Shown: piece after piece, positions 1,597-47,507 of the stretch | Numbering within the stretch: position 1 is the first letter of the stretch | How the letters are laid out: every line of letters begins with the position of its first letter | Origin: Candidatus Giovannonibacteria bacterium RIFOXYD1_FULL_48_21 | GTDB taxonomy: Bacteria > Patescibacteriota > Minisyncoccia > JACPKW01 > UBA11713 | Length of the DNA stretch: 64,000 bases | Direction of reading: 5' to 3' | NCBI GenBank assembly: GCA_001778985.1 | Contig: MFIU01000001.1 | Location: forward strand, 190,934 to 254,933 | Program-made: the position numbers and the translations under genes | Notes under the pieces: model-generated | The model's input: only the letters and a program-made list of their open reading frames with translations | What the model was told of the DNA's origin: nothing | Databases searched by the model: none

Positions 1597-1599
1597 GGG

Positions 1600-3953: not shown

Positions 3954-3973
3954 GAAAATCGTAAAATTTTGGA

Positions 3974-6715: not shown

Positions 6716-6784
6716 ATCCCGTTAGAAATTCAGCGGGGATCATTAGTCGCGGTGAATGTTTATTGGTTAAATTTCTAACGGGAT
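6716..6784. repeat. Perfect 15-bp inverted repeat (ATCCCGTTAGAAATT ... AATTTCTAACGGGAT) with a 39-nt spacer; lies between the leuS stop and the next start codon
   Basis: Read directly from the sequence; the right arm ends in the AT of the ATG at 6783. Confidence 0.8.
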
Positions 6785-7941: not shown

Positions 7942-9119
7942 GTGATATGAAAGACCGGGAAATAGAAAAATTAATTAAAGCGGAAGAGAAACGCCAGAAG
8001 CGGGTGATTAATTTAATTCCCTCGGAAAATTATGTTTCTCAAGACGTGCTTCGGGCGCTGGGCTCGGTGCTGAATAATAAATATTCCGAAGGGTATCCCG
8101 GGAAGCGTTATTACGGCGGAAATGTCATTATCGACAAAGTAGAAAACCTTTGCCGCAAGCGAGCTCTTAAACTTTTCAAATTAAAACCGGAGGAATGGCA
8201 CGTAAACGTGCAGCCGCTTTCGGGGAGCCCGGCGAATCTCGCGGTCTACGCGGCCTTGGTGCCGCTGGGCGGAAAAATCATGGGCTTGACGCTCTCCTCG
8301 GGCGGGCATCTTACCCACGGACAGAAAGGTTCTGTAACCGGAAAAATTTGGACGCAGGTGCCCTACGCGGTTGACCCCAAAACAGAGACGCTTGATTACG
8401 ATGCTCTCCAGAAACTCGCGATACAAGAAAAACCAAATATAGTCGTGGCTGGCTATACGGCTTACCCGCGATTTGTTGATTGGAAAAAATTCAAAGAGAT
8501 AGCAAATGCTTCCGGCGCCATACTTATGGTCGACATGTCTCATATGGCGGGGCTCATTGCCGGCGGAGTATATCCGAGTCCGTTTCCGTACGCGGATGTG
8601 GTGACTACCACAACGCATAAAACTCTCCGCGGCCCGCGCGCCGCGATTATTTTTGCGAAAAAGGACGCGCGAGAATTTGATAAAAAAATCGACAAAGCGA
8701 TTATCCCCGGGCTCCAGGGTGGGCCGCATGAAAACCAAATCGCGGCGGTCGCGGTTTGTCTCAAGGAAGCCATGAATCCCGCGTTTAAAAAGTATGTTAA
8801 GCAAATTATAAAAAACGCGAAAGTATTGGCACTGAGCTTGTCGAAGTGTGGCTGGCGGGTTATTTCGGGGGGCACGGATTCGCATCTGCTTCTGGTAGAC
8901 ACCTGGATGGACGGCAAGGGAATTTCAGGCAAGGATGCCGAAGCCGCTCTTGAAAAAGCCGATATTATCGTAAATAAAAATACGATTCCCGGAGACCAGC
9001 GAAGCCCGCTTGACCCATCCGGCATTCGCCTCGGCACCCCGGCCGTGACCACGCAAGGAATGAAAGAACGCGACATGAAAAAAATCGCCGAAAGAATTCA
9101 TAAGATTTTGTCGCGATGA
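7938..9119 (+). CDS. glyA: Serine hydroxymethyltransferase
   Basis: LIPSENYVS, YSEGYPGKRYYGG, and the PLP-Lys region (TTTTHKTLRGPR). Confidence 0.95.
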   Translation: MSDMKDREIEKLIKAEEKRQKRVINLIPSENYVSQDVLRALGSVLNNKYSEGYPGKRYYGGNVIIDKVENLCRKRALKLFKLKPEEWHVNVQPLSGSPANLAVYAALVPLGGKIMGLTLSSGGHLTHGQKGSVTGKIWTQVPYAVDPKTETLDYDALQKLAIQEKPNIVVAGYTAYPRFVDWKKFKEIANASGAILMVDMSHMAGLIAGGVYPSPFPYADVVTTTTHKTLRGPRAAIIFAKKDAREFDKKIDKAIIPGLQGGPHENQIAAVAVCLKEAMNPAFKKYVKQIIKNAKVLALSLSKCGWRVISGGTDSHLLLVDTWMDGKGISGKDAEAALEKADIIVNKNTIPGDQRSPLDPSGIRLGTPAVTTQGMKERDMKKIAERIHKILSR

Positions 9120-9964
9120 TTGTTGACGGCAAAGCGCTTGCGGAGAAAATAAAAGCCGAATTGAAAGCGGATGTTTCGAAGCTAAACAAAAAAATTCGAC
9201 TGGCGGTGGTTAAAATCAGCTCGGATGCCGCGACTGAAAAATTTTTGGAGCAGAAAAGGAAATTCGCAGAGGCGATTGGAGTGGATGTCAGAATTTATGA
9301 AATACATCCGGATATCTCCACGAATAAACTCCGCGAGAAAGTTTCAGAGATTGTGCATATCAAAGAAAACAACGGGGTCATAGTTCAGCTTCCTTTGCCG
9401 CCGCAGATAAACACGCAATATATTCTGGACGCGATAGTTCCGGAAAAAGACCCGGACATGCTTTCTTCTAAAAGCTGGGGAGCGTTTGCGGCCGGATCCG
9501 CCCGCCGGCGGACAAAGATTCTGCCGCCGGTTGCGGGAGCGGTTAAAGCCGTATTTGATGAGCATAAAGTCGAGATTCGCGATAGAAACGCAGTAGTGAT
9601 AGGCGCCGGCCGCCTGGTGGGCAAGCCCCTCGCGACCTGGCTTTTGAACGCCGGGGCCACGGTTTCCGTGATTCACAGGGGCACCAAGAATCCGGAAGAA
9701 TATACTCGAAAAGCCGATATTATTATTTCCGGAGTTGGAAAACCGAAATTGATAACTCCTGTGATGGTGAAAGACGGGGTGGTGGCGATTGATTGCGGCA
9801 CTTCGGAGTCCCCGCCTGGGGCGGGGCAGGCCTCCAGGCAGGTGGTCGGAGATATTGACCCTGGAGTTTCAGAGAAAGCTTCTCTTTTCGCGCCGGTTCC
9901 GGGCGGGGTCGGCCCGGTTACGGTCGCGATGCTGTTTAAAAATCTAGTTGAGCTGTCAAAATGA
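9116..9964 (+). CDS. folD: Bifunctional methylene-THF dehydrogenase / methenyl-THF cyclohydrolase
   Basis: Typical FolD N-terminus (IDGKALAEKIK) and dinucleotide-binding region. Confidence 0.9.
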   Translation: MIVDGKALAEKIKAELKADVSKLNKKIRLAVVKISSDAATEKFLEQKRKFAEAIGVDVRIYEIHPDISTNKLREKVSEIVHIKENNGVIVQLPLPPQINTQYILDAIVPEKDPDMLSSKSWGAFAAGSARRRTKILPPVAGAVKAVFDEHKVEIRDRNAVVIGAGRLVGKPLATWLLNAGATVSVIHRGTKNPEEYTRKADIIISGVGKPKLITPVMVKDGVVAIDCGTSESPPGAGQASRQVVGDIDPGVSEKASLFAPVPGGVGPVTVAMLFKNLVELSK

Positions 9965-10428
9965 ATTATCTGGATTTGTTGATTATTTTTCTCGCGAAAT
10001 ATCTCGGCTGGGCGCTTGGAATTCTGGCGGTTTTTATTTTTTTAAAAAATAGGCGTCTTCTTTTGGAATCCTTCCTCTCGGCCGCGGTTGCGCGTTTCGG
10101 GATTACGGACCTTATCCGCTATTTTTACAATAGGCCGCGGCCATTTGAAGTTGGAGATTTCACTCCTTTGATTTCGCATGAATACGGCTATTCTTTTCCA
10201 TCTGGGCACGCCGCTTTTTTCTTCGCGCTCGCGACTGCGATATTTTTATACAACCGCCGCTGGGGCGCGGTGTTTTTCATCGGCGCTATTTTAATCAGCC
10301 TCGGCCGCGTTTGGGCTGGCGTTCATTGGTACTCGGACATTTTAGGAGGCGCGATTGTCGGTATTTTGACGAGTATTTTAGTTAATTTTCTTGTCAGAAA
10401 ATTTCAAAGGCCCGGGTCAAGTGTCTGA
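9961..10428 (+). CDS. PAP2 family phosphatase (undecaprenyl-diphosphatase-like), membrane
   Basis: All three PAP2 motifs present: KxxxxxxRP (YFYNRPRPF), PSGH, RxxxxxHxxxD (RVWAGVHWYSD). Confidence 0.8.
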   Translation: MNYLDLLIIFLAKYLGWALGILAVFIFLKNRRLLLESFLSAAVARFGITDLIRYFYNRPRPFEVGDFTPLISHEYGYSFPSGHAAFFFALATAIFLYNRRWGAVFFIGAILISLGRVWAGVHWYSDILGGAIVGILTSILVNFLVRKFQRPGSSV

Positions 10429-17257: not shown

Positions 17258-17655
17258 AGTTCAGATATGCCCGATATGGTTCGATACTTCGACCGGTCAT
17301 ACCGATAAAAGTTAAGAATGGCGGTAATGAAATTGGTTATCACGTTCTCGTAGATTCAGGAGCGGATCTATGTTTGTTTGACGAGGAGATCGGGCAAACT
17401 TTGGGCATCGATGTGCGAAGCGGAAGGGCGCAAGAAGTTTTTGGCGTTGGAGGTAAAACCTCGGCGTATTATCTTCACAGGGTACAAGTAGAAATCGGTG
17501 GTCATGAATATGATATTGAAGCCGGATTTATGCAGAATGTGGCCGGTCATATTATGACTTATGGCATAGTTGGCCAGAAGGGATTCTTTGATATCTTTGT
17601 TGTAAAATTTGATCTTACTAAGGAGGAAATAGAGCTGAAAGAACGGAGAAGATAA
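17254..17655 (+). CDS. Retropepsin-like (clan AA) aspartic protease
   Basis: Catalytic D-S-G-A motif (HVLVDSGADLCLF) followed by a hydrophobic-hydrophobic-Gly region; 133 aa. Confidence 0.6.
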   Translation: MKFRYARYGSILRPVIPIKVKNGGNEIGYHVLVDSGADLCLFDEEIGQTLGIDVRSGRAQEVFGVGGKTSAYYLHRVQVEIGGHEYDIEAGFMQNVAGHIMTYGIVGQKGFFDIFVVKFDLTKEEIELKERRR

Positions 17656-20793: not shown

Positions 20794-22422
20794 TTGGTTT
20801 TAAATTTGATGGCGAAAAAATTTTGGCCTCCCGCGAGGGCGCGGTTGTATAATTACACTATGGCCTACCCCTATCTCCACTTGGCGCATGCGCCGGAATT
20901 GAAAGGAAAAGACTGGATAATTTTTAGGTTTCTAGAAATTTTTCCCGGAGGAATCGCGTGGCTGACGCTTGTGGGGATGGTTTTAGTTTCGTGGCTCGCT
21001 CCGGTCGCGGGGGCGATTTTTATAATTCTTTTTGATTTATATTGGCTTATAAAAACCATCTATCTTTCAATTCATCTTCGCGGAAATTGGAAGAGATTGC
21101 GGCATAATTTAAAGATTGATTGGAAAGAGCGCGTCCAAAAATTATGCTGGGAGCACGTCTGGCAGGTGGTCATTCTGCCCTTTTATAAAGAGTCTTATGA
21201 AGTGATAGAAAGTTCATTCCAAGCTCTCGTTAAATCAGATTGGCCCAAAGAGCGGATGATTTTAGTTCTGGCCAGGGAAGAGAAAGGAGGCGAGGGAACG
21301 CGCGAGACAATTTGGAAAATCCGCGAAAAATACAAAAATCAGTTTCCGCATTTTCTGGAAACCAAACATCCCGTAAACCTCGAAGGCGAGATTCCCGGCA
21401 AAGGCTCCAATGCCGCTTGGGCCGGACGCGAAGTAAAAAAATATATTGATAAACTCAATGTTCCTTACGGCGATATTCTTGTTTCGTCCCTGGATATCGA
21501 CACCCAGGTTCCTGAGCAATATTTTTTGGTCTTGGCCTATCATTTTCTGACGGTGGAAAATCCGCATCGGACCGCTTACCAGCCGGTTCCGGTCTACAAC
21601 AATAATATTTGGGAAGCGCCATCTTTCTCGCGCGTGGTCGCGAACTCCGGAACTTTCTGGCAAATGATGCAGCAGGAGCGTCCGGAAAGGCTGGCAACTT
21701 TCTCTTCGCACTCCATGAGTTTTAAGGCGCTCGTCGAGCTCGATTTTTGGCAGAGAAACATGGTTTCCGAAGATTCAAGAATTTTCTGGCAGGGATTTCT
21801 CTATTATAAAGGCGATTACAAATCTCAACCTATCGCTTATCCGGTCTGGATGGACGCGCCCATTGGCAGAAATCTCTGGGAAACCGCGCAAAGTGTCTAT
21901 AAACAGCAGAGGCGCTGGGCCTGGGGCGTGGAGAATTTTCCGTACACTCTTTTCGGATTTTTGAAAATTCCTGAAATTCCCTTGCGAAAAAAACTTTATT
22001 TCACCCTGATTATGTTTGAGGGGCTTTGGTCTTGGTCCACGAACGCGATTTTGATGTTTTTCTTGGGCTGGCTTCCTTTGATTCTTGGGGGCGAAGCTTT
22101 TAACTCAACTATTCTCTCCTACAATCTGCCGCGCGCGACGAGACTGATTATGACCTTAGCCATGGTCGGGATTATAACTTCCATCGTAATTTCGACTTCG
22201 CTTCTGCCGCCCCGTCCGGAGAAGACGCCTCGCCGAAAATATCTTTACATGATTTTGCAGTGGCTTTTGATGCCCGTGACTCTAATTTTCTTCGGCGCGA
22301 TTCCGGCGCTCGACGCCCAAACCCGCTTAATGCTCGGCAAGTACATGGGTTTCTGGGTGACGCCTAAATATAGAAAGACTCCGGAGTTTATTCGAAATGA
22401 AGCGATGCGGACTGCGCGCTGA
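20794..22422 (+). CDS. Membrane-embedded processive family-2 glycosyltransferase (cellulose/chitin-synthase-like)
   Basis: D..D (SLDIDTQ), ED (SEDSRIFWQ) and QQRRW motifs, flanked by multiple TM segments. Confidence 0.55.
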   Translation: MVLNLMAKKFWPPARARLYNYTMAYPYLHLAHAPELKGKDWIIFRFLEIFPGGIAWLTLVGMVLVSWLAPVAGAIFIILFDLYWLIKTIYLSIHLRGNWKRLRHNLKIDWKERVQKLCWEHVWQVVILPFYKESYEVIESSFQALVKSDWPKERMILVLAREEKGGEGTRETIWKIREKYKNQFPHFLETKHPVNLEGEIPGKGSNAAWAGREVKKYIDKLNVPYGDILVSSLDIDTQVPEQYFLVLAYHFLTVENPHRTAYQPVPVYNNNIWEAPSFSRVVANSGTFWQMMQQERPERLATFSSHSMSFKALVELDFWQRNMVSEDSRIFWQGFLYYKGDYKSQPIAYPVWMDAPIGRNLWETAQSVYKQQRRWAWGVENFPYTLFGFLKIPEIPLRKKLYFTLIMFEGLWSWSTNAILMFFLGWLPLILGGEAFNSTILSYNLPRATRLIMTLAMVGIITSIVISTSLLPPRPEKTPRRKYLYMILQWLLMPVTLIFFGAIPALDAQTRLMLGKYMGFWVTPKYRKTPEFIRNEAMRTAR

Positions 22423-24535
22423 CGCGCCGTGCCAACTCGGGATATTTTTGAATCGAATTCGCTTCAATTATTTTCCTGGCTTCTTCTCTGGCGGCTTCCA
22501 CCATTTTGATATTTTTTAAAGCTTCCATGCCGACGTCAGAGATGCCCCATTGTTTTTGGCCGGTTAGTTCGCCTGGGCCGCGAAGCTCTAGGTCATATTC
22601 CGCAAGCTCGAATCCGGACTTGGCTTCCAAAAGCGCTTGAAGCCGCGCCTTTGTTTTTTGCGAATTTGATTCCGTGAACAAGAAGCAATAGGGCTGATGT
22701 TCCGAGCGCATCACGCGTCCCCGAAGCTGGTGCAGTTGCGCGAGACCGAAGCGTTCGGCGCCTTCAATCAAAATAATTGTTGCGTTCGGGACATCCACGC
22801 CGACCTCGATGACGGAAGTCGCCACCAAAAGCTGGATTTTTCCCTCCCGAAATTCTTTCATTATTTTTTCTTTTTCTTTGGGTTTGAGCTTTCCGTGGAG
22901 CATCGCGACCTTAAACTCCGGGAAAATATTTTCCGAAAGAGTTTTATATTCTTTTTTTACGGCGCGCATCTCTGGAAGTCCGACTTCCCGGAGAAGTCGG
23001 ACTTCCTCGGATTCAATCCGCGGGCAGAGAACGTAGGCCTGGCGCCCGAATGAAATTTTTTTCCGGACGTGCTCGTAGGCATGTTTTCGTTTCTCGGGGG
23101 CGATAATCTCGGTAATTATTTTTTTTCTTCCAGCTGGCATCTCGTCCAAAAGCGTTAAATCCAAATCTCCGTAAATTGTAAGCGCCAAAGTTCGAGGGAT
23201 TGGGGTCGCAGTCATGGACAAAAGATGGGGAATCTGCCCGCCGGCAGGCAGGTTTTCTTCGTGACCTTTTTGCGTCAATTTCAAGCGCTGATTTATGCCA
23301 AAGCGATGCTGTTCGTCCACGATCACCAGCGCCAGTTTTTTGAATTTTATTTTTTCCTGAATCAAAGAATGGGTGCCGATTAAAATTTGAATCTCACCCG
23401 ATGCTAACCATTTCAAGAGGGGAGCGCGCGCAATGTGAGTCGGTTTCCCGGCGAAAGCTTTGGAGGGATATTTTAAAAATTCTGAAGAGGTAGCCAAGCC
23501 TATTTTTATATTCAACTGCTTAAAACGGCGGATGAATTCTTCAAAATGCTGGCGCGCCAAAACCTCGGTCGGCGCCATGTAGGCCACCTGAAAATTGTTC
23601 TGGACGGCGGCAAAACTCGCCACGGCCGCGACCGCGGTTTTTCCGGAACCGACATCTCCTTCCAAGAGTCTGGACATCGGCTTCGCTCGGCCCAGATCTT
23701 CGAGAATATGTTCGCTGGCTCGTTTTTGGGCGCCGGTCAGTTCGAAAGGGAAGGCTTTTACGAAATCTTTAATTTTTTCCGGCTCAATGGCTATCTGATA
23801 CGAAGGATGTTCATCGCGTTTTTTGCGCCAGGCTTGCCGGATTAGCTGGATTATGAAAATTTCTTCAAAGGCGAAGCGCTTTCTGGCGGCCTCGGCCCAT
23901 TTCAAATTCCGCGGGAAGTGAATTTCTTTTATGGCCGATTTTAAGGAGGGGAGATTGTATTTTTTTAAAATTTCTTCCGGAATGGAGTCTTTTAGGGAAG
24001 TCGGACTTCCACTTGGAAGTCCGACTTCCAAGTGGTCCAAAATTCGTTTTATTGCAAAGCGGAGCCAGCGCGAAGTGAGGCCCCGCGTCTCCGGGTAAAT
24101 TGGTACAAGTATTCCAGACTCATTCGCGGTTATCTCTCCTGCTTCAAACACGGGATTCATCATGGAAAGCCCGTTTTTATCTCGTTTTATGGTTCCAGTG
24201 AAAGTGTAGTCGGTATTGGGTTTTAAGATATTAACCATATATGGCTGGTTGAACCAGACAATTTTTAAAGAGCCGGTGCCGTCAGAAATCAAAGTCTGGG
24301 CAAGGCTGATTTTTTTGCGAAAGGTTTTTTTGGCTTCGGTTTTAATCACACGGCCGTGCACCGAGGCCCGTTCGCCCGCGACTAAATCCGCGACAGCTTT
24401 TCTGCCGGCAAACCCTTCGTATCTTACGGGAAAATGCCACAATAAATCACGGACTATTTGGAGTCCGAACTTTTTTAAAATTAGAATTTGTCTCTCGGTC
24501 AGGCGAAAATAATTCGAGAGCGGGGAGTCGAGCAT
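22388..24535 (-). CDS. recG: ATP-dependent DNA helicase RecG
   Basis: Wedge/OB N-terminus, helicase motifs I (GDVGSGKT), II (DEQH) and VI (QLRGRV); contains two in-frame REP-like doublets. Confidence 0.9.
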   Translation of the reverse strand: MLDSPLSNYFRLTERQILILKKFGLQIVRDLLWHFPVRYEGFAGRKAVADLVAGERASVHGRVIKTEAKKTFRKKISLAQTLISDGTGSLKIVWFNQPYMVNILKPNTDYTFTGTIKRDKNGLSMMNPVFEAGEITANESGILVPIYPETRGLTSRWLRFAIKRILDHLEVGLPSGSPTSLKDSIPEEILKKYNLPSLKSAIKEIHFPRNLKWAEAARKRFAFEEIFIIQLIRQAWRKKRDEHPSYQIAIEPEKIKDFVKAFPFELTGAQKRASEHILEDLGRAKPMSRLLEGDVGSGKTAVAAVASFAAVQNNFQVAYMAPTEVLARQHFEEFIRRFKQLNIKIGLATSSEFLKYPSKAFAGKPTHIARAPLLKWLASGEIQILIGTHSLIQEKIKFKKLALVIVDEQHRFGINQRLKLTQKGHEENLPAGGQIPHLLSMTATPIPRTLALTIYGDLDLTLLDEMPAGRKKIITEIIAPEKRKHAYEHVRKKISFGRQAYVLCPRIESEEVRLLREVGLPEMRAVKKEYKTLSENIFPEFKVAMLHGKLKPKEKEKIMKEFREGKIQLLVATSVIEVGVDVPNATIILIEGAERFGLAQLHQLRGRVMRSEHQPYCFLFTESNSQKTKARLQALLEAKSGFELAEYDLELRGPGELTGQKQWGISDVGMEALKNIKMVEAAREEARKIIEANSIQKYPELARRVSAQSASLHFE
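22974..23006. repeat. REP-like palindrome doublet (GGAAGTCCGACTTCC ..7nt.. GAAGTCGGACTTCC) in frame inside recG; encodes EEVRLLREVGLPE
   Basis: Read directly; the same 13-15-nt palindrome recurs at 23996, 40198, 40926 and 40988. Confidence 0.8.
23996..24035. repeat. REP-like palindrome doublet (GGAAGTCGGACTTCC + 27-nt perfect palindrome CCACTTGGAAGTCCGACTTCCAAGTGG) in frame inside recG; encodes LEVGLPSGSPTS
   Basis: Read directly. Confidence 0.8.
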
Positions 24536-28769: not shown

Positions 28770-28885
28770 GCTCGCCCGCTACCTGCCCGTCCGGCAGGCG
28801 GGCGCGGGCTCGCCAGCCCTGCCTGCGGCAGGCAGGCGTTTTTCGGGGAAATTTTCCGCCATAGGCGGATCTGCCTATGGCATGA
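28770..28885 (+). terminator. Cluster of GC-rich hairpins after tRNA-Ser(GCU): CCTGCC-CGTCC-GGCAGG; CCTGCCTGC-GGCAGGCAGG followed by TTTTT (likely intrinsic terminator); GCCATAGGC-GGATCT-GCCTATGGC
   Basis: Read directly; a T-run follows the second hairpin. Confidence 0.55.
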
Positions 28886-33439: not shown

Positions 33440-33987
33440 TGGGACGGAATTTTTTAGGCCTGGTTCTGATTGTGGCGGCGGCCGGGGTGAGCGCTTTCTG
33501 GGCTTATCCCTTATGGCTGGAGGTAGGCGAATTGGGCGGGACGAAAGAGGAGCTGACTCGAACCGTGAACCAAGTTAAAGACTTGGCGCGTCGGCGGGAC
33601 GATCTTTTGGCCAGTTACAATTCCATTCCCCGCCAGGATTTGGAAAGTTTGGAAGAATTTTTTCCGAGCAGTCCGGAGGCCGGACTGCTCTTGGTTAACC
33701 TCGAGAGTCTCGCCCGGGGCTCGGGGCTTTTGCTCAAAACCATCGCCGTGAGCGAAGGCGGAGAGCTTCAAGTTCAGCCGGCGGACCAGCCCCAGGAGAA
33801 AGTTTCGAGCTTGCCTTTTCAGATTTCAGTTTCCGGTTCGTACGCCGCTTTTCGTTCTTTTCTGGCCGCCTTGGAGTCTTCGCGCCGCCTTATTGAGCTC
33901 GACCAAATTTCCTTCGACTCCGGCAAGGCCGGAACAAAAGAGTCTTACGAGTTTACGATTCAGGCTCACACTTATTGGAGAAAATAA
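33439..33987 (+). CDS. pilO: PilO-like pilus assembly protein
   Basis: N-terminal TM, coiled-coil, C-terminal alpha/beta domain; operon position. Confidence 0.55.
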   Translation: MGRNFLGLVLIVAAAGVSAFWAYPLWLEVGELGGTKEELTRTVNQVKDLARRRDDLLASYNSIPRQDLESLEEFFPSSPEAGLLLVNLESLARGSGLLLKTIAVSEGGELQVQPADQPQEKVSSLPFQISVSGSYAAFRSFLAALESSRRLIELDQISFDSGKAGTKESYEFTIQAHTYWRK

Positions 33988-36022: not shown

Positions 36023-36403
36023 ATGAACAAAAAGATTTTGATAATTGACGACGACGAATTTTTGCTGGATATGTACTCTTTGAAGTTTCGGGAAGCCGGT
36101 TTTCAAGTGGAAGTGGGCCGGAGCGGAGAAGAGGCGCTGAATCTGGTGCGCCAGGGCTTGAAGCCGGAAGTGGTTTTGCTGGACATCGTGATGCCCACGA
36201 TTGACGGCTTTGAATTTCTGCGGCTCGTGAAAAAAGAAAATCTCCTGCAAGGAGCGCTGGTGGTGATTTTGTCCAACTTGGGCCAGCGGGAAGATATCGA
36301 GAAAGGCTTGGCTTTGGGAGCTAACGACTATATCGTGAAAGCTCACTCCACCCCCTCCGAAGTGCTTCGAAAAATTGAAACCCTCTTAGAGAAGAAAGCA
36401 TGA
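36023..36403 (+). CDS. Stand-alone response-regulator receiver domain protein (CheY-like)
   Basis: DD..D...K receiver signature (IIDDDEFL...LLDIVMP...K). Confidence 0.85.
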   Translation: MNKKILIIDDDEFLLDMYSLKFREAGFQVEVGRSGEEALNLVRQGLKPEVVLLDIVMPTIDGFEFLRLVKKENLLQGALVVILSNLGQREDIEKGLALGANDYIVKAHSTPSEVLRKIETLLEKKA

Positions 36404-37482
36404 GTCCTCTCAAGGATTACGAAGCGGAGCTGAAAGAGCTTATTGGAGCCGTGCTCCGCGAGCAGGCCTCCGACCTCCATATCTCGGCTGGACGCCACCC
36501 CACTTTACGGATTGCCGGCCGCTTGACGCCCTTGGTGAAAACGCAGGTTTTGACTCCCCAAGACACCGAGGGTTTCATCTTCGCCATGCTGGATGACCAA
36601 AAACGCTCTAAGCTCATCTCTGAACGGGAGCTGGATTTTTCTTACAATTTTGAAACGAAGGCCCGCTTTCGGGTGAACGCCTATTTTGAGCGCGGCTTTC
36701 TGGCCGTGGCGCTTCGGTTTGTGCCAGTGGAGATTAAGAGCTTAAAGGATTTGAACCTGCCGGATATTCTTTTGAACTTCGTAAGAAAAAAACAGGGATT
36801 TTTTCTGGTAGCGGGTCCGACCGGACACGGCAAATCCACCACCCTGGCCTCGCTTCTCAACGCCGTCAATCAGGAAAGATTTGAACACCTGCTTACGATT
36901 GAGGATCCGATCGAGTTTCTTTTCACTCCGGACAAATCTATTATCGACCAGCGCGAGGTCGGTTTTGACACCAAAGATTTTCACCGCTCTCTTCGCTCCA
37001 TGTTTCGGCAGGACGTCAACGTGGCCATGATCGGCGAGATGCGGGACCAGGAGACCATGTCCACGGCGGTGACCGCGGCCGAAACCGGGCATCTTATTCT
37101 TTCTTCCCTGCACACCAATAACGCCGCCCAAACCATTGACCGGATTATTGATTCTTTCCCGCCGGGTCAGCAAAATCAGATTCGCTCCCAGCTCGCCTCC
37201 ACTCTCTTGGGTATTTTCTCCCAAAGGCTTTTACCCCGTATTTCCGGGGGCTTGGTGCCGGCCTACGAGCTTTTAATCGCGACCACGGCCGTTCGGAATT
37301 TGATTCGGGAGGGGAAAAATCACGAACTTGATTTGGTGATTGAGACTTCGGCCGAGCTCGGCATGATAACTTTGAATCAATCCCTCCTCAACTTGGTCCA
37401 GCAGGACGAGATAACTTTTGAGACCGCGCTCGCTTACTCCATCGACCCTAAGAATTTAGAAACTTTATTGGGCCGAAGATGA
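36400..37482 (+). CDS. pilT: Twitching-motility ATPase PilT
   Basis: Walker A (AGPTGHGKSTT), PilT-type core, 360 aa. Confidence 0.92.
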   Translation: MSPLKDYEAELKELIGAVLREQASDLHISAGRHPTLRIAGRLTPLVKTQVLTPQDTEGFIFAMLDDQKRSKLISERELDFSYNFETKARFRVNAYFERGFLAVALRFVPVEIKSLKDLNLPDILLNFVRKKQGFFLVAGPTGHGKSTTLASLLNAVNQERFEHLLTIEDPIEFLFTPDKSIIDQREVGFDTKDFHRSLRSMFRQDVNVAMIGEMRDQETMSTAVTAAETGHLILSSLHTNNAAQTIDRIIDSFPPGQQNQIRSQLASTLLGIFSQRLLPRISGGLVPAYELLIATTAVRNLIREGKNHELDLVIETSAELGMITLNQSLLNLVQQDEITFETALAYSIDPKNLETLLGRR

Positions 37483-37485
37483 AAA

Positions 37486-38697
37486 ATGTCTCTTTATAAC
37501 TATCAAGCCAGAACTCCTGAGGGCGAGGTGAGGGCCGGCACGATCGAATCCCCGAGTTTGGACCTGGCGGTCTCCGCGCTCCAGCGCCGTTCTTTAGTCA
37601 TTGTTTCTCTGACTCCGGCCGAGGAAAAAGTTCCGTGGTACCGCCGGGAGGTTTTACGTTTCGGCGGCATTAAGTTGCGGGACATCGTGATTCTTTCAAG
37701 ACAGCTTGCCATTCTCTTCGAAGCCAAAGTTCCTATCGTTGATTCTCTTAAAATTTTAGCCGCCGAGAGTTTGAAACCTAAACTTCGTCAGGCTCTGGGC
37801 GAGATTTCCACGGACATTCAAGGCGGTTTTTCCATCACCCAGGCCCTCGCGAAACGCCCCGATATTTTTTCAGAATTCTACGTCAATATGGTGCGCTCCG
37901 GCGAAGAGTCCGGCAAGCTGGAAGAAGTGTTTTTGTATCTCGCCGATTATCTGGAGCGAAGTTATGAACTTTTGTCCAAAGCTCGAAACGCCTTGATTTA
38001 CCCCGCTTTCGTGCTGGTTGTTTTTGTGGGAGTGATGGCCGGAATGCTGGTGGGTGTAATTCCGCAGATTTCCGTGATTCTCATCGAGGCCGGGGCCGAT
38101 GTGCCGATTTACACCCAAATTATCATCGCGCTTTCTGATTTTTTGCGGCGTTTTGGAGTTTTGATTTTGATCGCCGCGGGGCTTGGCGGCATTTTTCTCT
38201 GGCGTTACTCCCAGACCGAGGCCGGGCGCTTGTCTCTTTCGCGCTTGGTGCTGGATTTGCCCTGGGTTGGGAATTTGGTTAGAAAATTCTACGTCGCGCG
38301 TTTCGTGGACAACCTCGAAACTCTAATTGTGGGAGGGGTGAGCGTTTTGCGGGCGCTGGAGCTTTCGGCCGAAGTGGTCGGTAACGAAATTTTTTCAAAA
38401 ATCATCCGGGAGGCGGCCGAGGCGGTCAAAGGCGGCGCCCCCATCTCCGAGGCCCTCTCGCGCTGGGAAGACATCCCGCCTTTGGTGACGCAGATGATAA
38501 AGATAGGCGAGGAGACGGGCAAACTCGACTTTATGCTGAAAACTATGGCCCGTTTTTACCGCCGGGAGGTAGAGAACACGGTGGACAACTTGGTGGGCCT
38601 CATTGAACCTGTGATGATAATTATTTTGGGCCTGGGGGTCGGGATTTTGGTGGTATCCGTACTTTTGCCCATCTACAATATTTCCTCAACCTTTTAA
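37486..38697 (+). CDS. pilC: Type IV pilus platform protein PilC (GspF family)
   Basis: Two GspF repeats, 3 TM segments, 403 aa. Confidence 0.9.
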   Translation: MSLYNYQARTPEGEVRAGTIESPSLDLAVSALQRRSLVIVSLTPAEEKVPWYRREVLRFGGIKLRDIVILSRQLAILFEAKVPIVDSLKILAAESLKPKLRQALGEISTDIQGGFSITQALAKRPDIFSEFYVNMVRSGEESGKLEEVFLYLADYLERSYELLSKARNALIYPAFVLVVFVGVMAGMLVGVIPQISVILIEAGADVPIYTQIIIALSDFLRRFGVLILIAAGLGGIFLWRYSQTEAGRLSLSRLVLDLPWVGNLVRKFYVARFVDNLETLIVGGVSVLRALELSAEVVGNEIFSKIIREAAEAVKGGAPISEALSRWEDIPPLVTQMIKIGEETGKLDFMLKTMARFYRREVENTVDNLVGLIEPVMIIILGLGVGILVVSVLLPIYNISSTF

Positions 38698-38715
38698 TTG
38701 TTTTATAATTGAATT

Positions 38716-39168
38716 ATGAAAAAAGCCGGTTTTACTTTAATTGAACTTCTGGTGGTTATCGCGATTATAGGCATTCTGGCCTCCGTGGTTTTAGCTTCGC
38801 TGAATACGGCTAGGAAAAAAGGCAACGATGCCAAAGTCAAAGCCCAGCTCTCGGGCCTGCGGGTCGCGGCGGAGCTCTATTGGGATTCCGCAGGCAATTA
38901 CGGAATCACAACTAATGCCTGCAGTGGCGGTGTTGGAAATATGTTTGCCGATACTGCGTCGAACATGGCAACATATGTCGATGGCGCCAACTACCCTGCT
39001 GGGACCACGATAACTTGCCGCGCCATAGCTGCTCCAGCTTCCTACGCGGTTTCCGCTAATTTAAGCGATGCCAACGCGGCCGCGGTTGACAACTGGTGCG
39101 TGGACTCGACCGGCGTTTCCAAAGCTATCGCTAGTTACCTGGCAAGCGGAGACACCACCTGCAACTAA
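38716..39168 (+). CDS. Type IV pilin (prepilin-type N-terminal cleavage/methylation domain), paralog 1
   Basis: GFTLIELLVVIAIIGILA class III signal; C-terminal Cys pair. Confidence 0.9.
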   Translation: MKKAGFTLIELLVVIAIIGILASVVLASLNTARKKGNDAKVKAQLSGLRVAAELYWDSAGNYGITTNACSGGVGNMFADTASNMATYVDGANYPAGTTITCRAIAAPASYAVSANLSDANAAAVDNWCVDSTGVSKAIASYLASGDTTCN

Positions 39169-39266
39169 ACTCTTATCCACACTGAAAAATTATTCCGTCC
39201 GGCAACGGGGTATAATAATAGTATTAGAAAAAGAAGGTCGTTTTACTCTTAGACATTAATGTTTTT

Positions 39267-39725
39267 ATGAATATTTTTAGGAAGAAAGCAGGTTTTACCC
39301 TTATTGAACTTCTGGTGGTTATCGCGATTATTGGCATTCTGGCCTCCGTGGTTTTAGCTTCGCTGAATACGGCCCGAAAGCGCGGGAACGACGCCAAAGT
39401 CAAGGCCCAGCTCTCTGGACTTCGCGTGGCCGCGGAATTGTATTTTGATTCCAACGGCGGCTATGGCGCCACCACCGATGTTTGCAGTGTTGGAATGTTC
39501 CCAGATACCGCGTCGAACATGGCCACCTATGTTGACACGGCGAACTATCCTGCTGGGACTACAATAGACTGCCACGCAGTCACTTCCCCGTCTGCCGCCT
39601 ACGCTGTTTCAGCTACTTTGAGTGATGCTAACCCGGCTACAGCCGACGTCTGGTGCGTGGATTCAACCGGCGCCTCCAAAGCTATCGGTGATCGTCTAAC
39701 CACCGCCGGAGACGTTACCTGCTAG
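39267..39725 (+). CDS. Type IV pilin, paralog 2
   Basis: GFTLIELLVVIAIIGILA; 5' 160 nt about 90% identical to paralog 1. Confidence 0.9.
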   Translation: MNIFRKKAGFTLIELLVVIAIIGILASVVLASLNTARKRGNDAKVKAQLSGLRVAAELYFDSNGGYGATTDVCSVGMFPDTASNMATYVDTANYPAGTTIDCHAVTSPSAAYAVSATLSDANPATADVWCVDSTGASKAIGDRLTTAGDVTC

Positions 39726-40195
39726 TGAGAAAGGGTTTTACTTTAATTGAACTCCTGGTGGTAATTGCCGTTATTGGAATTATTGCCGCCATTATAGTTG
39801 TCGCGCTTGGCGGCGCCAGAAATCGCTCTCAAGACGCCAAGGTCAAGGTTCAGGTGTCCGGAGCCAAAAACGCGGCTGAAATTTATTTCAATTCCTCGGG
39901 CGGCTACGGCGCCGCCAATGTTTCCGTCGTTTCGGGAGGAGCATCCTGCGCCGGCGCTATGTTCACGGACGCAAATTCCAGCATGGCCGCGTACGCTGAC
40001 TCTGATAATTATCCCGGAGGAGCCGGGTTGGTCTGCGTTCAGAATTCCAGCGCTTTTGCCTTCGCGGCCTCTCTTTCAATTTCCGGCGAGTACTGGTGCG
40101 CGGACTCCAGCGGCAACCCAGGCAAAATCACGATTTCTAACCCCGCGAGCGTAGTCACCTCTGATGACACCTGCTCCGAACTCGACGCCAGATGA
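39725..40195 (+). CDS. Type IV pilin, paralog 3
   Basis: GFTLIELLVVIAVIGIIA prepilin signal. Confidence 0.9.
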   Translation: MRKGFTLIELLVVIAVIGIIAAIIVVALGGARNRSQDAKVKVQVSGAKNAAEIYFNSSGGYGAANVSVVSGGASCAGAMFTDANSSMAAYADSDNYPGGAGLVCVQNSSAFAFAASLSISGEYWCADSSGNPGKITISNPASVVTSDDTCSELDAR

Positions 40196-40197
40196 GT

Positions 40198-40218
40198 TAT
40201 CGAAGTCCGACTTCGATA
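40198..40218. repeat. REP-like 21-nt perfect palindrome TATCGAAGTCCGACTTCGATA between the convergent pilin and RAYT genes
   Basis: Read directly. Confidence 0.85.
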
Positions 40219-40219
40219 G

Positions 40220-40909
40220 TTATTCTATTATCACCTCTTTGTCCATCTCCTTATAATTTTCTGAACGGAGCCATTCGGTAATATTGGCTTGATATTGTTT
40301 GGGGCCTCCAAAAGATTCATCAAGCAGACCCATATCCAATAATTCTGGGAAATTCATTTTTCCAAGGTAATCCTGGTGACTTGACCATCGGTATGATGCT
40401 AAAAAGTCTAAAGCTTTTTCTGGATTTTTAATGCCGTTTATTTTCCACTCTGGCTCAATCGCCTCGAGCGGGTTTAGATGAATATAGTAGGGGAGATAAA
40501 TAAAATGTCGCTCATTTTTTAATCTCGCGGCTTTATATTTTCCTTGAAAAAGCGGCCCCACCCTCTGATACTTTTTATTAAAATAATTTGTGTATCCGGC
40601 CCCAACCTTTCTCATAAACTCCGTGATTCCATTTCCTGCTATCTGTTCAAGCAGCAAGTGGTAGTGATTTGACATCAGCGCAAACGCCAACACCCTAACT
40701 AATTTCTTACGCGGATATTGAAGTCGGATTTCGATAGATTTTATATCGAAAAAATAGCCTATATTGGTGGCTGAGCTTGAATCATTGAAAAGAGTTAAGC
40801 TATAAACAAATCTTAAGCGGTCACGATCGTTAAGAAAAATGTTCCTTTTTTCCACACCACGATTATAAACGTGATAAATTTTACCGGTGGCAGGTTTTTC
40901 TCTTGGCAT
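40220..40909 (-). mobile_element. REP-associated tyrosine transposase (RAYT / IS200-like HUH Y1 transposase), 229 aa
   Basis: HUH motif (HYHLLLEQ), IHLNPL and RWSSHQDY regions resembling E. coli RayT/YafM; flanked by REP-like palindromes. Confidence 0.7.
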
Positions 40910-40925
40910 ATCTTTAATTCTATTC

Positions 40926-40943
40926 TATCGAAGTCGGACTTCC
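40926..40943. repeat. REP-like half-palindrome TATCGAAGTCGGACTTCC upstream of the RAYT gene
   Basis: Read directly. Confidence 0.8.
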
Positions 40944-40980
40944 AAATGCTTGTTGGGACTTTTCTTTATAGAATAAATAA

Positions 40981-41751
40981 GTGGATTCTATCGAAATCGG
41001 ACTTCTAGTTTTCTTTTTTGGGCTTGCCGTCGGTAGTTTTCTTAACGTAATAATTTTTCGGCATAATACTGGCGAGAAAGTTATTGCCGGACGTTCTAGA
41101 TGTTTCGCCTGCGGGAAGACGCTTCGTTGGCATGAGCTTATTCCGGTTTTAAGTTTTTGCATCCAGAAGGGACGTTGCCGGGACTGCCGCAGTAAAATTT
41201 CCTGGCAGTACCCGGCCGTGGAAATTCTGACTGGACTTCTCTTTTTGTTTTTTTATCTTAAGTGGCGTATAGCGTATAGCCTGCCTGCCGGCGAGGCAGG
41301 CGCCGGGCAGGATTTGATAATTCTACTCTGGTGGTTTTCGATTGCGGCGCTTTTGGTCCTGCTCACCGTCTATGACCTCAAGCATAAAATTCTTCCGGAT
41401 AGATTCAATTACGCCTTTCTAGCTTTAAGCTTTTTTAATATCTTTAATGATTTCGCCGCCCTAACTTTCCTTTTAAGTCTTGGGCCGGCTTTTTTCCTGT
41501 TTTTGCTGTGGTTCATTTCAAGGGGCCGCTGGATGGGTTTGGGCGACGCCAAGCTTATGGCGGCGGGCGGCATTTTTTTGGGTCACATTCAAAGTTTGGT
41601 TGCTCTGGTCTTGAGTTTCTGGATTGGGGCGGCCGTTGGGATTTTCTTGCTTTTCCTGAACCCGAATATTAAACTTAAAAGTGAGATTCCTTTCGGGCCG
41701 TTTCTCGCGCTCGGAATAATCTTGGCTTTTTTCTTTTCTCCCTATGGCTAA
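40981..41751 (+). CDS. pilD: Prepilin peptidase (type IV leader peptidase / N-methyltransferase, A24 family)
   Basis: GSFLNV, zinc-binding CxxC...CxxC, catalytic Asp regions (GLGDAKLMAAGG); start uncertain (GTG at 40981). Confidence 0.85.
   Translation: MDSIEIGLLVFFFGLAVGSFLNVIIFRHNTGEKVIAGRSRCFACGKTLRWHELIPVLSFCIQKGRCRDCRSKISWQYPAVEILTGLLFLFFYLKWRIAYSLPAGEAGAGQDLIILLWWFSIAALLVLLTVYDLKHKILPDRFNYAFLALSFFNIFNDFAALTFLLSLGPAFFLFLLWFISRGRWMGLGDAKLMAAGGIFLGHIQSLVALVLSFWIGAAVGIFLLFLNPNIKLKSEIPFGPFLALGIILAFFFSPYG
40988..41008. repeat. Degenerate REP-like palindrome CTATCGAAATCGGACTTCTAG; encodes the first codons (SIEIGLL) of pilD
   Basis: Read directly. Confidence 0.7.
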
Positions 41752-42133
41752 AAAAGTGAATTCCAGGCTGGGAAAAACGACTATTTTTTGGGCGGGAGTG
41801 GGTATTCTTCTAGCCGCCATATTTATTTTTTCTTTCTATCCTTCCAGGAAAGGGTTAACGCTGATTATTGATTACGGTGGAGGCGACATAAGAACTTTCA
41901 AGACGAGTTATCAGGACGGCCTCACGGCCTGGGATATGCTTCAGCAGGCGAATGCAAACTATCAGATTGTTCTTGAACCGGAGACAGATTTTCGTCCGAA
42001 GGCTATCGGCGAGTTTAAAAACGGCACCGGAGGCAAACATTGGGTTTTATATAAAAACGGCCGGCGACAGGAAGCCAGTCCTATCCAGACCGATCTTTCC
42101 AGCGGAGAGATAATTCGTTTTAGATTTGAATAG
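41744..42133 (+). CDS. DUF4430-like domain protein with an N-terminal TM
   Basis: C-terminal HWVLYKNG....SP....L..GEIIRFRF resembles DUF4430. Confidence 0.45.
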   Translation: MAKKVNSRLGKTTIFWAGVGILLAAIFIFSFYPSRKGLTLIIDYGGGDIRTFKTSYQDGLTAWDMLQQANANYQIVLEPETDFRPKAIGEFKNGTGGKHWVLYKNGRRQEASPIQTDLSSGEIIRFRFE

Positions 42134-42693
42134 TGCGCGGGTTCACCTTACTCGAACTTATAATCACCCTCGCCATTTTCACGATTGTGGCCGGCATTTT
42201 ATTGGCCGATTATCCGCGTTTCGCCGCCCGGATCAACCTCCGCCGCTCCGCCCAGGAGATTGCGCTCTCGATCCGCGAGGCTCAATTCTCGGCTTTCGCG
42301 GTGAGGGGATTTCAGAGCGGCGGGCAGACGATTTTCAAATCCTGGGGGATTAATTTCAACAAAAGCGTTTCGGACAAAGAATATACTTTGTTCGTGGATG
42401 CCAATGGGGATTTTGAGTATGACCCGCCGCCGGCCGCGCCGAACGAACTTGTCAAAAAATTTCAAGTTGCCGGAACTTCCAAAATCGTAAGCCTTTGCGC
42501 CGGGCTTAAAACCGCGATCCCGGACACCTGCAGTCTCAACCGGCTCGATATAATTTATCAGCGCCCCAACCCGGATACCATCCTGAAAGGCAACGGCAGC
42601 GTGTATTCGGATTTGGAGATAATTATTCGGTCCCCGGACGGGCTCCAGAGGACCATCGTGGTTTGGTCAACCGGCCAGATATCCGTAGAGTGA
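42133..42693 (+). CDS. Minor pilin / pseudopilin (GspH/FimT-like)
   Basis: GFTLLELIITLAIFTIVAG prepilin N-terminus. Confidence 0.75.
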   Translation: MRGFTLLELIITLAIFTIVAGILLADYPRFAARINLRRSAQEIALSIREAQFSAFAVRGFQSGGQTIFKSWGINFNKSVSDKEYTLFVDANGDFEYDPPPAAPNELVKKFQVAGTSKIVSLCAGLKTAIPDTCSLNRLDIIYQRPNPDTILKGNGSVYSDLEIIIRSPDGLQRTIVVWSTGQISVE

Positions 42694-42695
42694 TT

Positions 42696-43187
42696 ATGAA
42701 GGGTTTTTCTCTTCTGGAAACAATTGTCGCCATCTCGATACTGACGCTCGCCCTTTTGGGGCCGCTGGCGCTGGCCGCTTTCGCGCTCCGCTCCGCCAGC
42801 TTGTCTGAAAATCAAGTCATCGCTTTTAATTTGGCGGAAGAGGGGATGGAGTTTGTCATAAATAAAAGGGATTCCAACATTTTCGCTGGCGCCGGAAACT
42901 GGCTCGAGGGCCTGACCAACTGCCAGTCTGCCAACGGCTGTTTTGTTGATGTTACCAATAATTCAGTGCAGAGATGTTCTGCGAATTGCCCTTTTCTGAA
43001 ACGCAATTCATCTTCCGGGTTGTACAACTATGCTTCCGGTCCTGATACTATTTTCCGGAGAAGAACGGTGCTTGAAAATGTGGGCTCAAACCAGGACGAA
43101 CGCAAAGTCAAGGTGAGCGTTTCTTGGGCGGAACGCTTCGGGAACCGCTCTTTTACCTTGGAACATAATATTTTTAAGAAGAGATGA
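42696..43187 (+). CDS. Minor pilin (PilV/GspI-like); the ORF track starts earlier, at 42663
   Basis: KGFSLLETIVAISILTLALLG prepilin N-terminus. Confidence 0.7.
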   Translation: MKGFSLLETIVAISILTLALLGPLALAAFALRSASLSENQVIAFNLAEEGMEFVINKRDSNIFAGAGNWLEGLTNCQSANGCFVDVTNNSVQRCSANCPFLKRNSSSGLYNYASGPDTIFRRRTVLENVGSNQDERKVKVSVSWAERFGNRSFTLEHNIFKKR

Positions 43188-43188
43188 T

Positions 43189-43769
43189 ATGAAACGCGAA
43201 GCAGGTTTTACGTTGTTGGAAATGCTGGTATCTTTGGCGGTTTTTTCAGTCGCGCTTTTAATAATTATGGTTACTCTTTTTTCCGTCTTTAACGCCCAGC
43301 GAAAAGCCATCGCGATTCAAAACGCCCAAGACAATCTGCGTTTCGCTTTTGAACATATGACCAAGGAGATTCGGGTCGGCCGCGTTTTTCACTGCGGCAT
43401 TTCCGGCACGCTGACCCAGCCTCAAGATTGCCCCAACGGTTCAACTCCTTCTTCTTTCAGTTTTAAAAATGACGTCGGCCAGACCGTGACTTATCAAGTT
43501 ATTTCCAATCAGCTGGTAAAATCCTCCACCGCCTCCCGGCCCTGCGACAATAGTCCGCCTACGCTCGCGGACTGCCAGAAAATCACGGCGCCGGAAGTGG
43601 TGATAGTGGATCGAGTTGCTTTTTACGTTGACGGTTCGGCCGCTTTTGATGGCAAGCAGGATAGGGTAACGATTGTGCTGGAAGGCCAGGTGCGGGATCC
43701 GCGGGGGATAGGCACCGCCGAGCTTAATCTTCAGACTACGGTTTCCAAAAGAAGTTTAGTCGACCAGCC

Positions 43770-43773
<4 letters not shown>
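43189..43773 (+). CDS. Minor pilin (PilW/GspJ-like)
   Basis: AGFTLLEMLVSLAVFSVALL prepilin N-terminus. Confidence 0.7.
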
Positions 43774-46856
<3,083 letters not shown>

Positions 46857-46881
<25 letters not shown>

Positions 46882-47507
46882 AAATCTCAAAGCATATTCA
46901 TTCGTGTTTACTGGTAGAGGACGAGAGCAAAACGATTTTGATTGACCCGGGGAATTATACTTTTGAAGAGAAGGGGCTTGATATTGGGAAATTAGAAAAG
47001 CTGGACTTTCTTTTGATAACCCATGAGCATCCCGACCACATGCACATGCCTTTGATTAAAGAAATATTGGAGAAATTTCCACAAGCCCAAATTATAAGCA
47101 ACAATTCCGTCAAAAAAATTTTAGAAGAAAGAGGGATAAACGCAACCGAAAATGTTGAACATTCAATGTTCAACATTTTGAAAGCACCGCACGAGCTTTT
47201 GCTCGGAGGCCGCACGGCGGAAAATACCTTGTTTAATATCTCGCAAAAATTAACTCATCCCGGGGACTCTCTTAAATTTGATAAGACCTGCGAGATTTTG
47301 GCGCTTCCCATTCAGGCGCCGTGGGGAAGCTTTGTCGCCTCGGTGGAAAAAGCGGCTCTTTTAAAGCCGAAAATCGTCATTCCAATTCACGACTGGCATT
47401 GGAAGGACGCCGCCCGCCGGAGAATGTACGATATGGCGAGCCAATATCTGTCAGAAAAAGACATTGATTTTCGCGGCCTCGAAACTGGCGAAGAAATATC
47501 GCTATGA
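46857..47507 (+). CDS. MBL-fold metallo-hydrolase
   Basis: HxHxDH motif (THEHPDHMH). Confidence 0.55.

Follow-up and report, generated by a model that had tools for sequence, protein, structure and literature searches.

We analysed a 64 kb stretch of contig MFIU01000001.1 from the genome of Candidatus Giovannonibacteria bacterium RIFOXYD1_FULL_48_21 (the whole stretch is called the window below), in which a gene for a single-stranded DNA (ssDNA) transposase of the Y1 HUH type lies among type IV pilus genes and is accompanied by copies of a short palindrome. Systems that pair such an enzyme, the REP-associated tyrosine transposase (RAYT, or TnpA-REP), with repetitive extragenic palindromic (REP) sequences and with their hairpin-forming doublets (REPINs) are well described in the literature. 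The original prediction, made from the sequence alone, had placed this locus among them as a RAYT-like gene with a perfect 21-nt palindrome downstream and two further copies upstream. The observation itself is confirmed, the gene and all three palindromes lying where they had been placed, and our analysis supports the interpretation as essentially right. The gene and the palindrome copies that belong to it are as follows.

40220-40909, minus strand: RAYT-type Y1 HUH transposase gene; 229 aa, with HUH motif H82-Y-H84, putative catalytic tyrosine Y142 (YIHLNP) and serine motif W175-S-S
40198-40218, unstranded: downstream cognate palindrome TATCGAAGTCCGACTTCGATA, perfect over 21 nt, 10-bp stem
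40716-40736 (core 40720-40732, 1 mismatch), minus strand: internal in-frame copy TATCGAAATCCGACTTCAATA, two stem mismatches; encodes S-I-E-I-R-L-Q
40926-40946 (core 40930-40942), unstranded: proximal upstream copy; 40926-40942 matches TATCGAAGTCSGACTTC (17 nt) with 0 mismatches
40989-41009 (core 40993-41005), unstranded: distal upstream copy; 40989-41005 matches with 1 mismatch; forms codons 3-9 of pilD

Counted with at most one mismatch, the 13-nt core of the palindrome, GAAGTCSGACTTC, has 8 occurrences in the window where shuffled sequence would give 0.07, and none of 100 shuffles reached 8. One occurrence lies downstream of the transposase gene, two lie upstream, one is internal and four, arranged as two tight pairs, are in recG. 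Three of these eight cores had been given in the original prediction; the internal in-frame copy and the four in recG, the most informative features of the system, had been missed. The downstream copy nearly fills the 24-nt gap between the stop codon of the convergent pilin gene (40193-40195) and that of the transposase gene (40220-40222), and the hairpins are flanked by TATC and GATA in the window and by varied sequences at other loci (CTATT, CTAAG, CTTAC and others).

The transposase protein

The motifs by which the protein had been recognised, SNHYHLLLEQ with the HUH pair and the C-terminal blocks YIHLNPL and YRWSSHQDY, are all present in the 229-aa open reading frame (ORF), and the proposed comparison with Pfam PF01797 (Y1_Tnp) gave 28 bits against a cut-off of 23, with residues 64-144 aligned to profile positions 34-119. 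A database search returned 2906 homologues, the named ones mostly from the candidate phyla radiation (CPR, or Patescibacteria). In an alignment of 119 homologues, H13, R17, G18, H82, H84, Q122, Y142, N146 and W175-S176-S177 are invariant and P147 is kept in at least 90%; by definition of this alignment the window protein has every invariant residue, the HUH and tyrosine arrangement included. The spacing from HUH to tyrosine, approximately 58-60 aa, falls inside the published median range of 58-67 aa for most subclasses, and the Y---NP tyrosine motif that is the signature of class 2 is present as YIHLNP.

An AlphaFold2 (AF2) model built from the 119-sequence alignment (a model from a 14-sequence alignment reached a pLDDT of 53 and was discarded) has a pLDDT of 86.7, and the segments that fall below 50 are solely residues 50-55 and 57-62. 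The internal palindrome falls in this disordered surface loop, which connects helix aA with the HUH strand. The top Foldseek match, agreeing with the predicted kind of enzyme, is 4ER8_A, the E. coli RAYT with its REP hairpin (E 1.3e-5, TM 0.67 on the target), followed by the TnpA proteins of IS608 and ISDra2, such that 4ER8, 2A6O, 2VJV and 2XMA span E values from 1e-5 to 1e-3. When the PDB was searched by sequence alone, neither the single protein nor a profile gave a significant match; ISDra2 TnpA, aligned at the HUH strand, appeared at E 0.39. Residues 155-221 form a helical tail in the model, and a C-terminal tail of about 80 aa with an SS motif is typical of class 2. No C-terminal helix-turn-helix (HTH) like Bac_DnaA_C, HTH_23 or HTH_28 was matched in Pfam at E up to 0.1.

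The motifs NHYH, LFQG, YIHLNP and WSS, together with the length of 229 aa, fit the set of subclass 2.1 (Bertels group 1), which is described by NH[YF]H, FQ, Y[IV]HLNP, an SS tail and a median of 238 aa (Quentin et al. 2018, Table 1, PMC6006769); judged by motif comparison, the protein is probably closest to that subclass. Subclass 2.1, the largest RAYT group, was reported to be without REP-like sequences nearby (Quentin et al. 2018, PMC6006769), whereas a cognate palindrome is the rule in the family studied here, and, in contrast to subclass 2.1 and the TIRYT proteins, the present one has no C-terminal HTH or DnaA_C-like domain by Pfam.

Versions of the transposase with about 99% identity and in-frame deletions are found on two short ENA contigs, one (P0001) without 24 aa that include the HUH motif and the other (P0002) without about 9 aa plus the N-terminus. 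These may be population variants, products of decay or assembly artefacts.

Covariation of the palindrome at three sites

We took 79 homologous loci from species-representative genomes, giving 80 loci with the window, and located in each the DNA aligned to the internal copy of the window. Most loci have a perfect palindrome of 19-29 nt at this position, and its sequence differs from locus to locus. In 57 of the 80 loci the internal 13-mer recurs both upstream and downstream of the gene with at most one mismatch, the median distances being 26 nt from the end of the upstream core to the ATG and 10 nt from the stop codon to the downstream copy. At each of the three sites the perfect stem has a median length of 10 bp, and the outer stem is often common to them too. 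Altogether there are 26 core types, each of which changes at all three sites; the commonest, found in diverse CPR lineages (31 of 67 typed loci), is the GAAGTCSGACTTC of the window, and others include GAGGTTCAACCTC, GAAGGTAACCTTC, GATGTCGGACATC and GACATCGCAAGTC.

Within the gene, the bases of the internal 29-nt palindrome (14-bp helix, alignment of 61 sequences) are paired in 85.5% of cases, compared with 66.7% in shuffles and 30-47% in controls in which the helix was slid along the alignment. Compensatory changes on both sides of the helix were seen at 12 of the 14 pairs, with a score that none of 500 shuffles reached. The loop peptide that this DNA encodes varies freely (EVQP, EGNL, DVGH, DFVN, DIGR, AIAR and others). 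Since the paired bases are kept while the peptide varies and lies in a disordered loop, we conclude that selection acts on the nucleic acid and not on the peptide. The converse explanation, that the internal copy is kept for its peptide (S-I-E-V-G/R-L) and that the DNA palindrome is a by-product, can point to E60 and L63, which are invariant in the 14 closest homologues, and yet we find it barely credible: besides the variable peptide and the double changes that preserve pairing across the family, the alternation of G and R in close homologues corresponds to the palindrome's central S, no other part of the model is disordered, and the same DNA recurs outside the ORF.

The association between gene and palindrome type also holds beyond the three fixed sites. 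Paralogues of the transposase within one metagenome-assembled genome (MAG) are 49-62% identical and have different cores, and copies of a locus's own type away from the gene number 0.51 per locus (approximately 13 kb), compared with 0.0096 per locus for each other type, which is an enrichment of about 50-fold.

Some loci place the copies differently. Three (L033, L043 and L072) have no palindrome at codon 60; their in-frame copy is found about 90-115 nt ahead of the stop codon. Three others (L018, L037 and L069) keep the codon-60 copy and have the 3' copy just inside the end of the ORF. These alternative positions suggest that the repeat entered the gene more than once. At another locus, L007, on a Paceibacterota contig, doublets at 8352-8390, 9621-9659 and 17299-17337 have 26-nt spacing and CTATG tails that point inward, which suggests an asymmetric repeat unit of tail plus hairpin, unlike that of the doublets in the window.

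Palindrome doublets inside recG and other genes

The four cores that lie away from the transposase gene form two doublets in recG.

22388-24535, minus strand: recG, host of both doublets; matches the RecG structure 1GM5 with E 2e-143
22974-23006, unstranded: REPIN-like inverted doublet A; cores at 22975 and 22993, in-frame in recG, encodes EVRLLREVGLP, 14-bp hairpin
23996-24029, unstranded: REPIN-like inverted doublet B; cores at 23997 and 24016, in-frame in recG, encodes EVGLPSGSPTS, 15-16-bp hairpin

As ssDNA, doublet A folds with -16.6 kcal/mol (z -5.6) and doublet B with -17.7 kcal/mol (z -6.2). Both doublets are absent from RecG orthologues at 73-85% identity (one of 692 aa and others), and a 99%-identical RecG has both, site A in a spacer variant. 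Relative to the orthologues, the net gain is 9 codons for doublet A and 7 codons for doublet B, in loops that are variable in other lineages too. The loop of doublet A carries a doublet in another metagenomic RecG (L144, residue ~517) and, in several other lineages, unrelated insertions of 6-20 aa (L050 5560-5640, P0126, P0131, P0134 and P0136); it looks like a hot spot tolerant of insertions.

A scan of metagenomes for the doublet pattern matched at least 118 stretches, representing at least 103 distinct sites. A palindrome that occurs only at the transposase locus would have counted against the original prediction; with the recG doublets, the own-type enrichment and these metagenomic sites, it is clearly more widespread. 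Among the matches listed, the units are inverted, with opposite central bases, in 97 of 101 doublets, as they are in REPINs; up to 8 different sites share an identical 31-nt doublet; and 73% of doublets lie in stop-free frames of at least 200 aa, compared with 69% of random positions on the same contigs, so that doublets are not excluded from genes. Pfam matches were found, again among the matches listed, for 17 of the 20 longest host ORFs, 16 of them housekeeping proteins and one a large LTD/beta-helix protein. These hosts include class I aminoacyl-tRNA synthetase, MetRS, UvrA, TopA (twice), PNPase (twice), RecG (in the same loop), LepA, DnaG, PolX, ribonucleotide reductase and TsaD.

The core is used in all three reading frames (EV[GR]L, KSDF and S[PR]TS) and is free of stop codons in each; we considered this lack of stops as a sign of selection and set it aside, given that it could arise by chance in so short a sequence. 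The flanks of the 101 doublets among the matches listed show only G/C at positions -1 and +1 and a weak T-rich/A-rich symmetry, with no target motif. One metagenomic locus (L085) has a 518-aa ORF without a Pfam match that contains three separate doublets (8470-10023), and a 2170-codon stop-free frame (929-7438) with another doublet near its 5' end.

Doublets of this kind invite the view that the hairpins act mainly as RNA, controlling translation or decay of the transposase and host mRNAs, and that transposition of the DNA has ceased. Transcription necessarily includes the internal copy and the doublets in genes, the hairpins of the doublets are very stable, and Di Nocera et al. have argued for a function of many REPs as RNA. 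However, the recG doublets are lineage-specific gains and identical 31-nt doublets occur at many sites, both of which point to recent spread at the level of DNA, and if the transcripts are leaderless the upstream copy lies outside the mRNA and yet is kept identical. We therefore consider a mainly RNA-level role unlikely.

Neighbouring genes and inheritance of the locus

The genes on either side of the transposase gene belong to the type IV pilus.

40981-41751, plus strand: pilD (prepilin peptidase), the divergent neighbour; Pfam A24_N_bact and Peptidase_A24
39725-40195, plus strand: last of three type IV pilin genes, the convergent neighbour of the transposase gene; Pfam N_methyl

The GTG at 40981 comes immediately after a stop codon, and no other ATG, GTG or TTG gives a full-length PilD; an independent gene call on a public contig yields the identical 256-aa product. 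With the start thus fixed, codons 3-9 of pilD (SIEIGLL) are encoded by the distal upstream palindrome, as had been proposed.

The wider cluster (36400-44288) comprises pilT, pilC, the three pilin genes, the transposase gene, pilD and minor pilin genes. The order of divergent pilD, transposase gene and convergent pilin genes is found in 10 other species, in which PilD is 36-60% and the transposase 51-59% identical to that of the window. Conservation of this order alongside such diverged PilD sequences means that the position is old and inherited and does not reflect a recent insertion. The original description of a transposase inserted into, and splitting, the pilin cluster thus stands as regards the location of the gene, and falls as regards a recent event. 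With the window, the pilus cluster with its transposase gene is conserved in 11 species (loci L001-L005, L007, L011, L025, L031 and L060); at about 69 of the 79 loci there is no pilD or pilin match within approximately 10 kb on each side. No second copy of the transposase gene was found within the 64 kb window. Low-copy, divergent paralogues, each with its own repeat, are the pattern of class 2 TnpA-REP and not that of IS200.

These data bear on whether the gene and its flanking hairpins are simply an autonomous insertion sequence (IS) of the IS200/IS605 type, a unit of about 0.8 kb that transposed between the pilins and pilD with the hairpins as its ends. Such elements share the catalytic fold and subterminal DNA hairpins seen here, the protein matches Y1_Tnp in Pfam and its fold resembles IS608 and ISDra2 TnpA. 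Against this stand the position kept beside pilD and the pilins across the 10 other species, the absence of a second copy from the window, and the divergence of paralogues from the same MAG, at 49-62% identity, when IS200 copies average 99% (Quentin et al. 2018, Table 1, PMC6006769). None of the traits of IS200/IS605 was seen, whether the Y---Q motif, a protein length of about 150 aa, several near-identical copies or the frequent tnpB partner; the protein instead has Y---NP and the ~80-aa class 2 tail with its SS motif, and no tnpB is a neighbour. An insertion sequence of this type is accordingly very unlikely.

The pilus context raises another possibility, which is that the palindrome is a tag for the type IV pilus machinery, akin to a DNA uptake sequence (DUS). 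The DUS of Neisseria often occurs as inverted pairs, also inside genome-maintenance genes, and this likeness and the synteny with pilins and pilD in 11 species would favour such a role. However, most loci (about 69 of 79) have no such genes nearby, the palindromes differ between paralogues of one genome and co-vary with the transposase gene, and the density in the window, about 1 per 8-16 kb, is far under that of known uptake sequences. We rate this explanation as most unlikely.

Promoter- and terminator-like features

A promoter-like site for the transposase gene lies on the minus strand at 40945..40917 (TTGGAA, 17 nt, TAGAAT, then 7 nt to the ATG), and the proximal upstream copy of the palindrome overlaps its -35 hexamer and spacer. 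Across the family, a TATAAT-like hexamer ending 3-12 nt before the start codon is found in 47% of loci compared with 14% of shuffles, and a Shine-Dalgarno-like motif in only 8% of loci. This suggests leaderless transcripts with an operator-like upstream copy, so that autoregulation would be possible. On the plus strand the downstream copy fits a terminator-like pattern for the pilin gene, and it may be used as a terminator or 3' stabiliser of the convergent pilin operon.

It could then be asked whether the palindromes are just ordinary cis-regulatory DNA or RNA, such as operators of another regulator, terminators or stabilisers, near a transposase gene by coincidence. The terminator-like downstream copy and the promoter overlap of the upstream copy would agree with this, and REPs have been reported to act as terminators and stabilisers. 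However, it leaves unexplained a fixed in-frame copy that covaries with the flanks in 57 loci, the different palindromes of paralogues in one genome, and doublets in the middle of coding sequence in recG, aminoacyl-tRNA synthetase, UvrA and TopA genes; moreover, regulatory use can be secondary to the link with the transposase. An incidental association is thus quite unlikely in our view.

Other palindromes in the window

An Rfam scan of the window returned tRNAs only. A second, GC-rich type of palindrome lies in-frame in genes at 23234-23251, 28818-28836 and 41280-41311, and a pattern search for this family turned up a single exact copy. The first, CTGCCCGCCGGCAGGCAG, lies in recG in a 7-codon insertion that most orthologues lack, and encodes LPAGGQ (P0130 also has LPAGRQ there); that at 28818 is CCTGCCTGCGGCAGGCAGG; and the third, CCTGCCTGCCGGCGAGGCAGGCGCCGGGCAGG in pilD, encodes LPAGEAGAGQ. 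These are possibly another small repeat family, without a visible transposase in the window. Two long perfect palindromes unrelated to the transposase-associated core lie at 47149-47179 (AAAATGTTGAACATTCAATGTTCAACATTTT, 15-bp stem) and 33666-33690 (GAGCAGTCCGGAGGCCGGACTGCTC, 11-bp stem).

A probable domesticated transposase and its cognate repeat

Taking these results together, we interpret the gene as a domesticated, vertically inherited Y1 HUH ssDNA transposase or nuclease of the RAYT (TnpA-REP, class 2) type that, with its cognate palindromic repeat, forms one system, and we put the probability of this reading at roughly 70%. The whole is a RAYT/REPIN-like system of CPR bacteria whose repeats lie inside genes, including the transposase gene itself. 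It resembles the known RAYT systems (E. coli YafM, PDB 4ER8, and the Pseudomonas REPINs) in the Y1 HUH fold and Y---NP motif, in a gene flanked by its own palindromes (a REPtron-like layout), in low-copy, divergent paralogues each with its own repeat family, and in vertical inheritance, and its dispersed repeats resemble REPINs as inverted doublets with a short spacer that form one long hairpin. It differs from those systems in its perfect, symmetrical palindromes with one 13-nt core shared by 31 of 67 typed loci, in repeats that coding sequence does not exclude (those in recG and pilD and the internal one are all in-frame), when the published view places REPs between genes, in the fixed in-frame copy within the gene itself and in the host clade, which is the CPR.

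Other parts of the arrangement have their own precedents. Self-complementary repeats that flank the gene are also known from TIRYT/TIRtron elements, where those beside some TIRYT genes make up small families of dispersed copies (Di Nocera et al. 2013). In subclass 2.4, cognate REPs lie in the transposase ORF with the frame kept and in a peripheral loop (Quentin et al. 2018), whereas the copy described here precedes the HUH strand, at a fixed position that most of the family shares, and compensatory changes keep it matched to the flanking copies. Palindromic repeats in-frame in housekeeping genes, often as dimers, are likewise known: intragenic REPs are often found in genes for replication and repair, uvrA among them (Di Nocera et al. 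2013), and the Rickettsia palindromic elements (RPE) are the classic in-frame case. RPE of the RPE-1 type are about 100-150 bp, whereas the doublets here are 31-34 nt and the repeats are tied to a specific transposase; the CGTC-type repeats, which include RPE-4 and RPE-6, were reported not to be associated with transposase genes (Di Nocera et al. 2013). Unlike in most REP hosts, where intragenic copies are a minority, the doublets here lie in ORFs as often as chance allows.

Several observations weigh against the interpretation of a domesticated RAYT with a cognate repeat. The 5' GT[AG]G guide of RAYT systems was not seen at the hairpin foot, as GTAG or GTGG, in the window or in the homologue loci, and the sole NCBIfam match of the protein, the RAYT equivalog NF047646 (REP_Tyr_transpos), scores 33.8 bits, under its cut-off of 80. 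For these reasons, and because the motifs are those of subclass 2.1 and the repeats are not extragenic, the original wording of a classic RAYT plus REP arrangement holds for the cognate flanking palindromes and not beyond them. The link between protein and palindrome appears as an association drawn from sequence comparison, and palindrome type follows protein similarity only weakly across loci (0.557 versus 0.544 identity, reached by 58 of 1000 permutations). The recG doublets have the 13-nt core of the gene with an outer stem of GG..CC and not TATC..GATA, and could have been mobilised by another, unseen paralogue. Their junctions, compared with the DNA of two orthologues, are unclean, with a net gain of 21 and 27 nt; 12-15 nt of diverged sequence have given way to the doublets, so that neither a target site nor a duplication can be defined in recG. 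The copies associated with the gene in the window are partly decayed and are less perfect than those of many relatives: as ssDNA the downstream copy is the sole one to fold well (-7.1 kcal/mol, z -3.7), the proximal upstream copy folds weakly (-3.1 kcal/mol, z -1.3), and the internal (-1.3 kcal/mol, z +0.3) and pilD (-0.9 kcal/mol, z +0.45) copies are too degenerate for a stable fold. Finally, copy counts for the organism are those of the 64 kb window.

If the enzyme and its repeat do form one system, it could work as follows. By analogy with IS608, ISDra2 and E. coli TnpA-REP, the enzyme would bind the hairpin when it is extruded on ssDNA, for example at replication forks, and would cut and rejoin beside it by means of Tyr142 and a metal bound by the HUH motif. 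This cutting and rejoining would spread doublets as REPIN-like non-autonomous elements, and where intergenic space is nearly absent, an insertion would survive if it preserved the reading frame and landed in a loop that tolerates it. The three gene-linked copies would stay identical through exchange by the enzyme or through selection for binding, the copy that overlaps the promoter would let the protein limit its own expression, and the downstream copy may also serve the convergent pilin operon, terminating its transcripts or stabilising their 3' ends.

A further proposal, which we regard as speculative and rather doubtful, is that the in-frame hairpin is a working part of the system. The gene would carry a protected master copy of the substrate in its own coding sequence in addition to the promoter copy, and enzyme, site and regulation would be inherited as an indivisible unit that seeds stop-free doublets into essential CPR genes. 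If this were true, it would describe an HUH replicator adapted to intragenic life, and it would mean that the RAYTs of subclass 2.1 (group 1), thought to be without repeats, do have cognate repeats.

CPR bacteria have genomes of approximately 1 Mb with almost no intergenic DNA, and the system described here would show how short mobile palindromes persist in them by living inside proteins. It bears on the annotation of insertions in CPR housekeeping proteins and of gene starts, as in pilD here. The role of RAYTs in their hosts and the movement of REPINs are open questions in the field, for which this family offers a compact test case defined by sequence: one small enzyme and a perfect hairpin of 21-31 nt that co-varies with it at three fixed sites, with many natural variant pairs for swaps of specificity and with recent in-frame insertions into essential genes, datable by comparison with orthologues.

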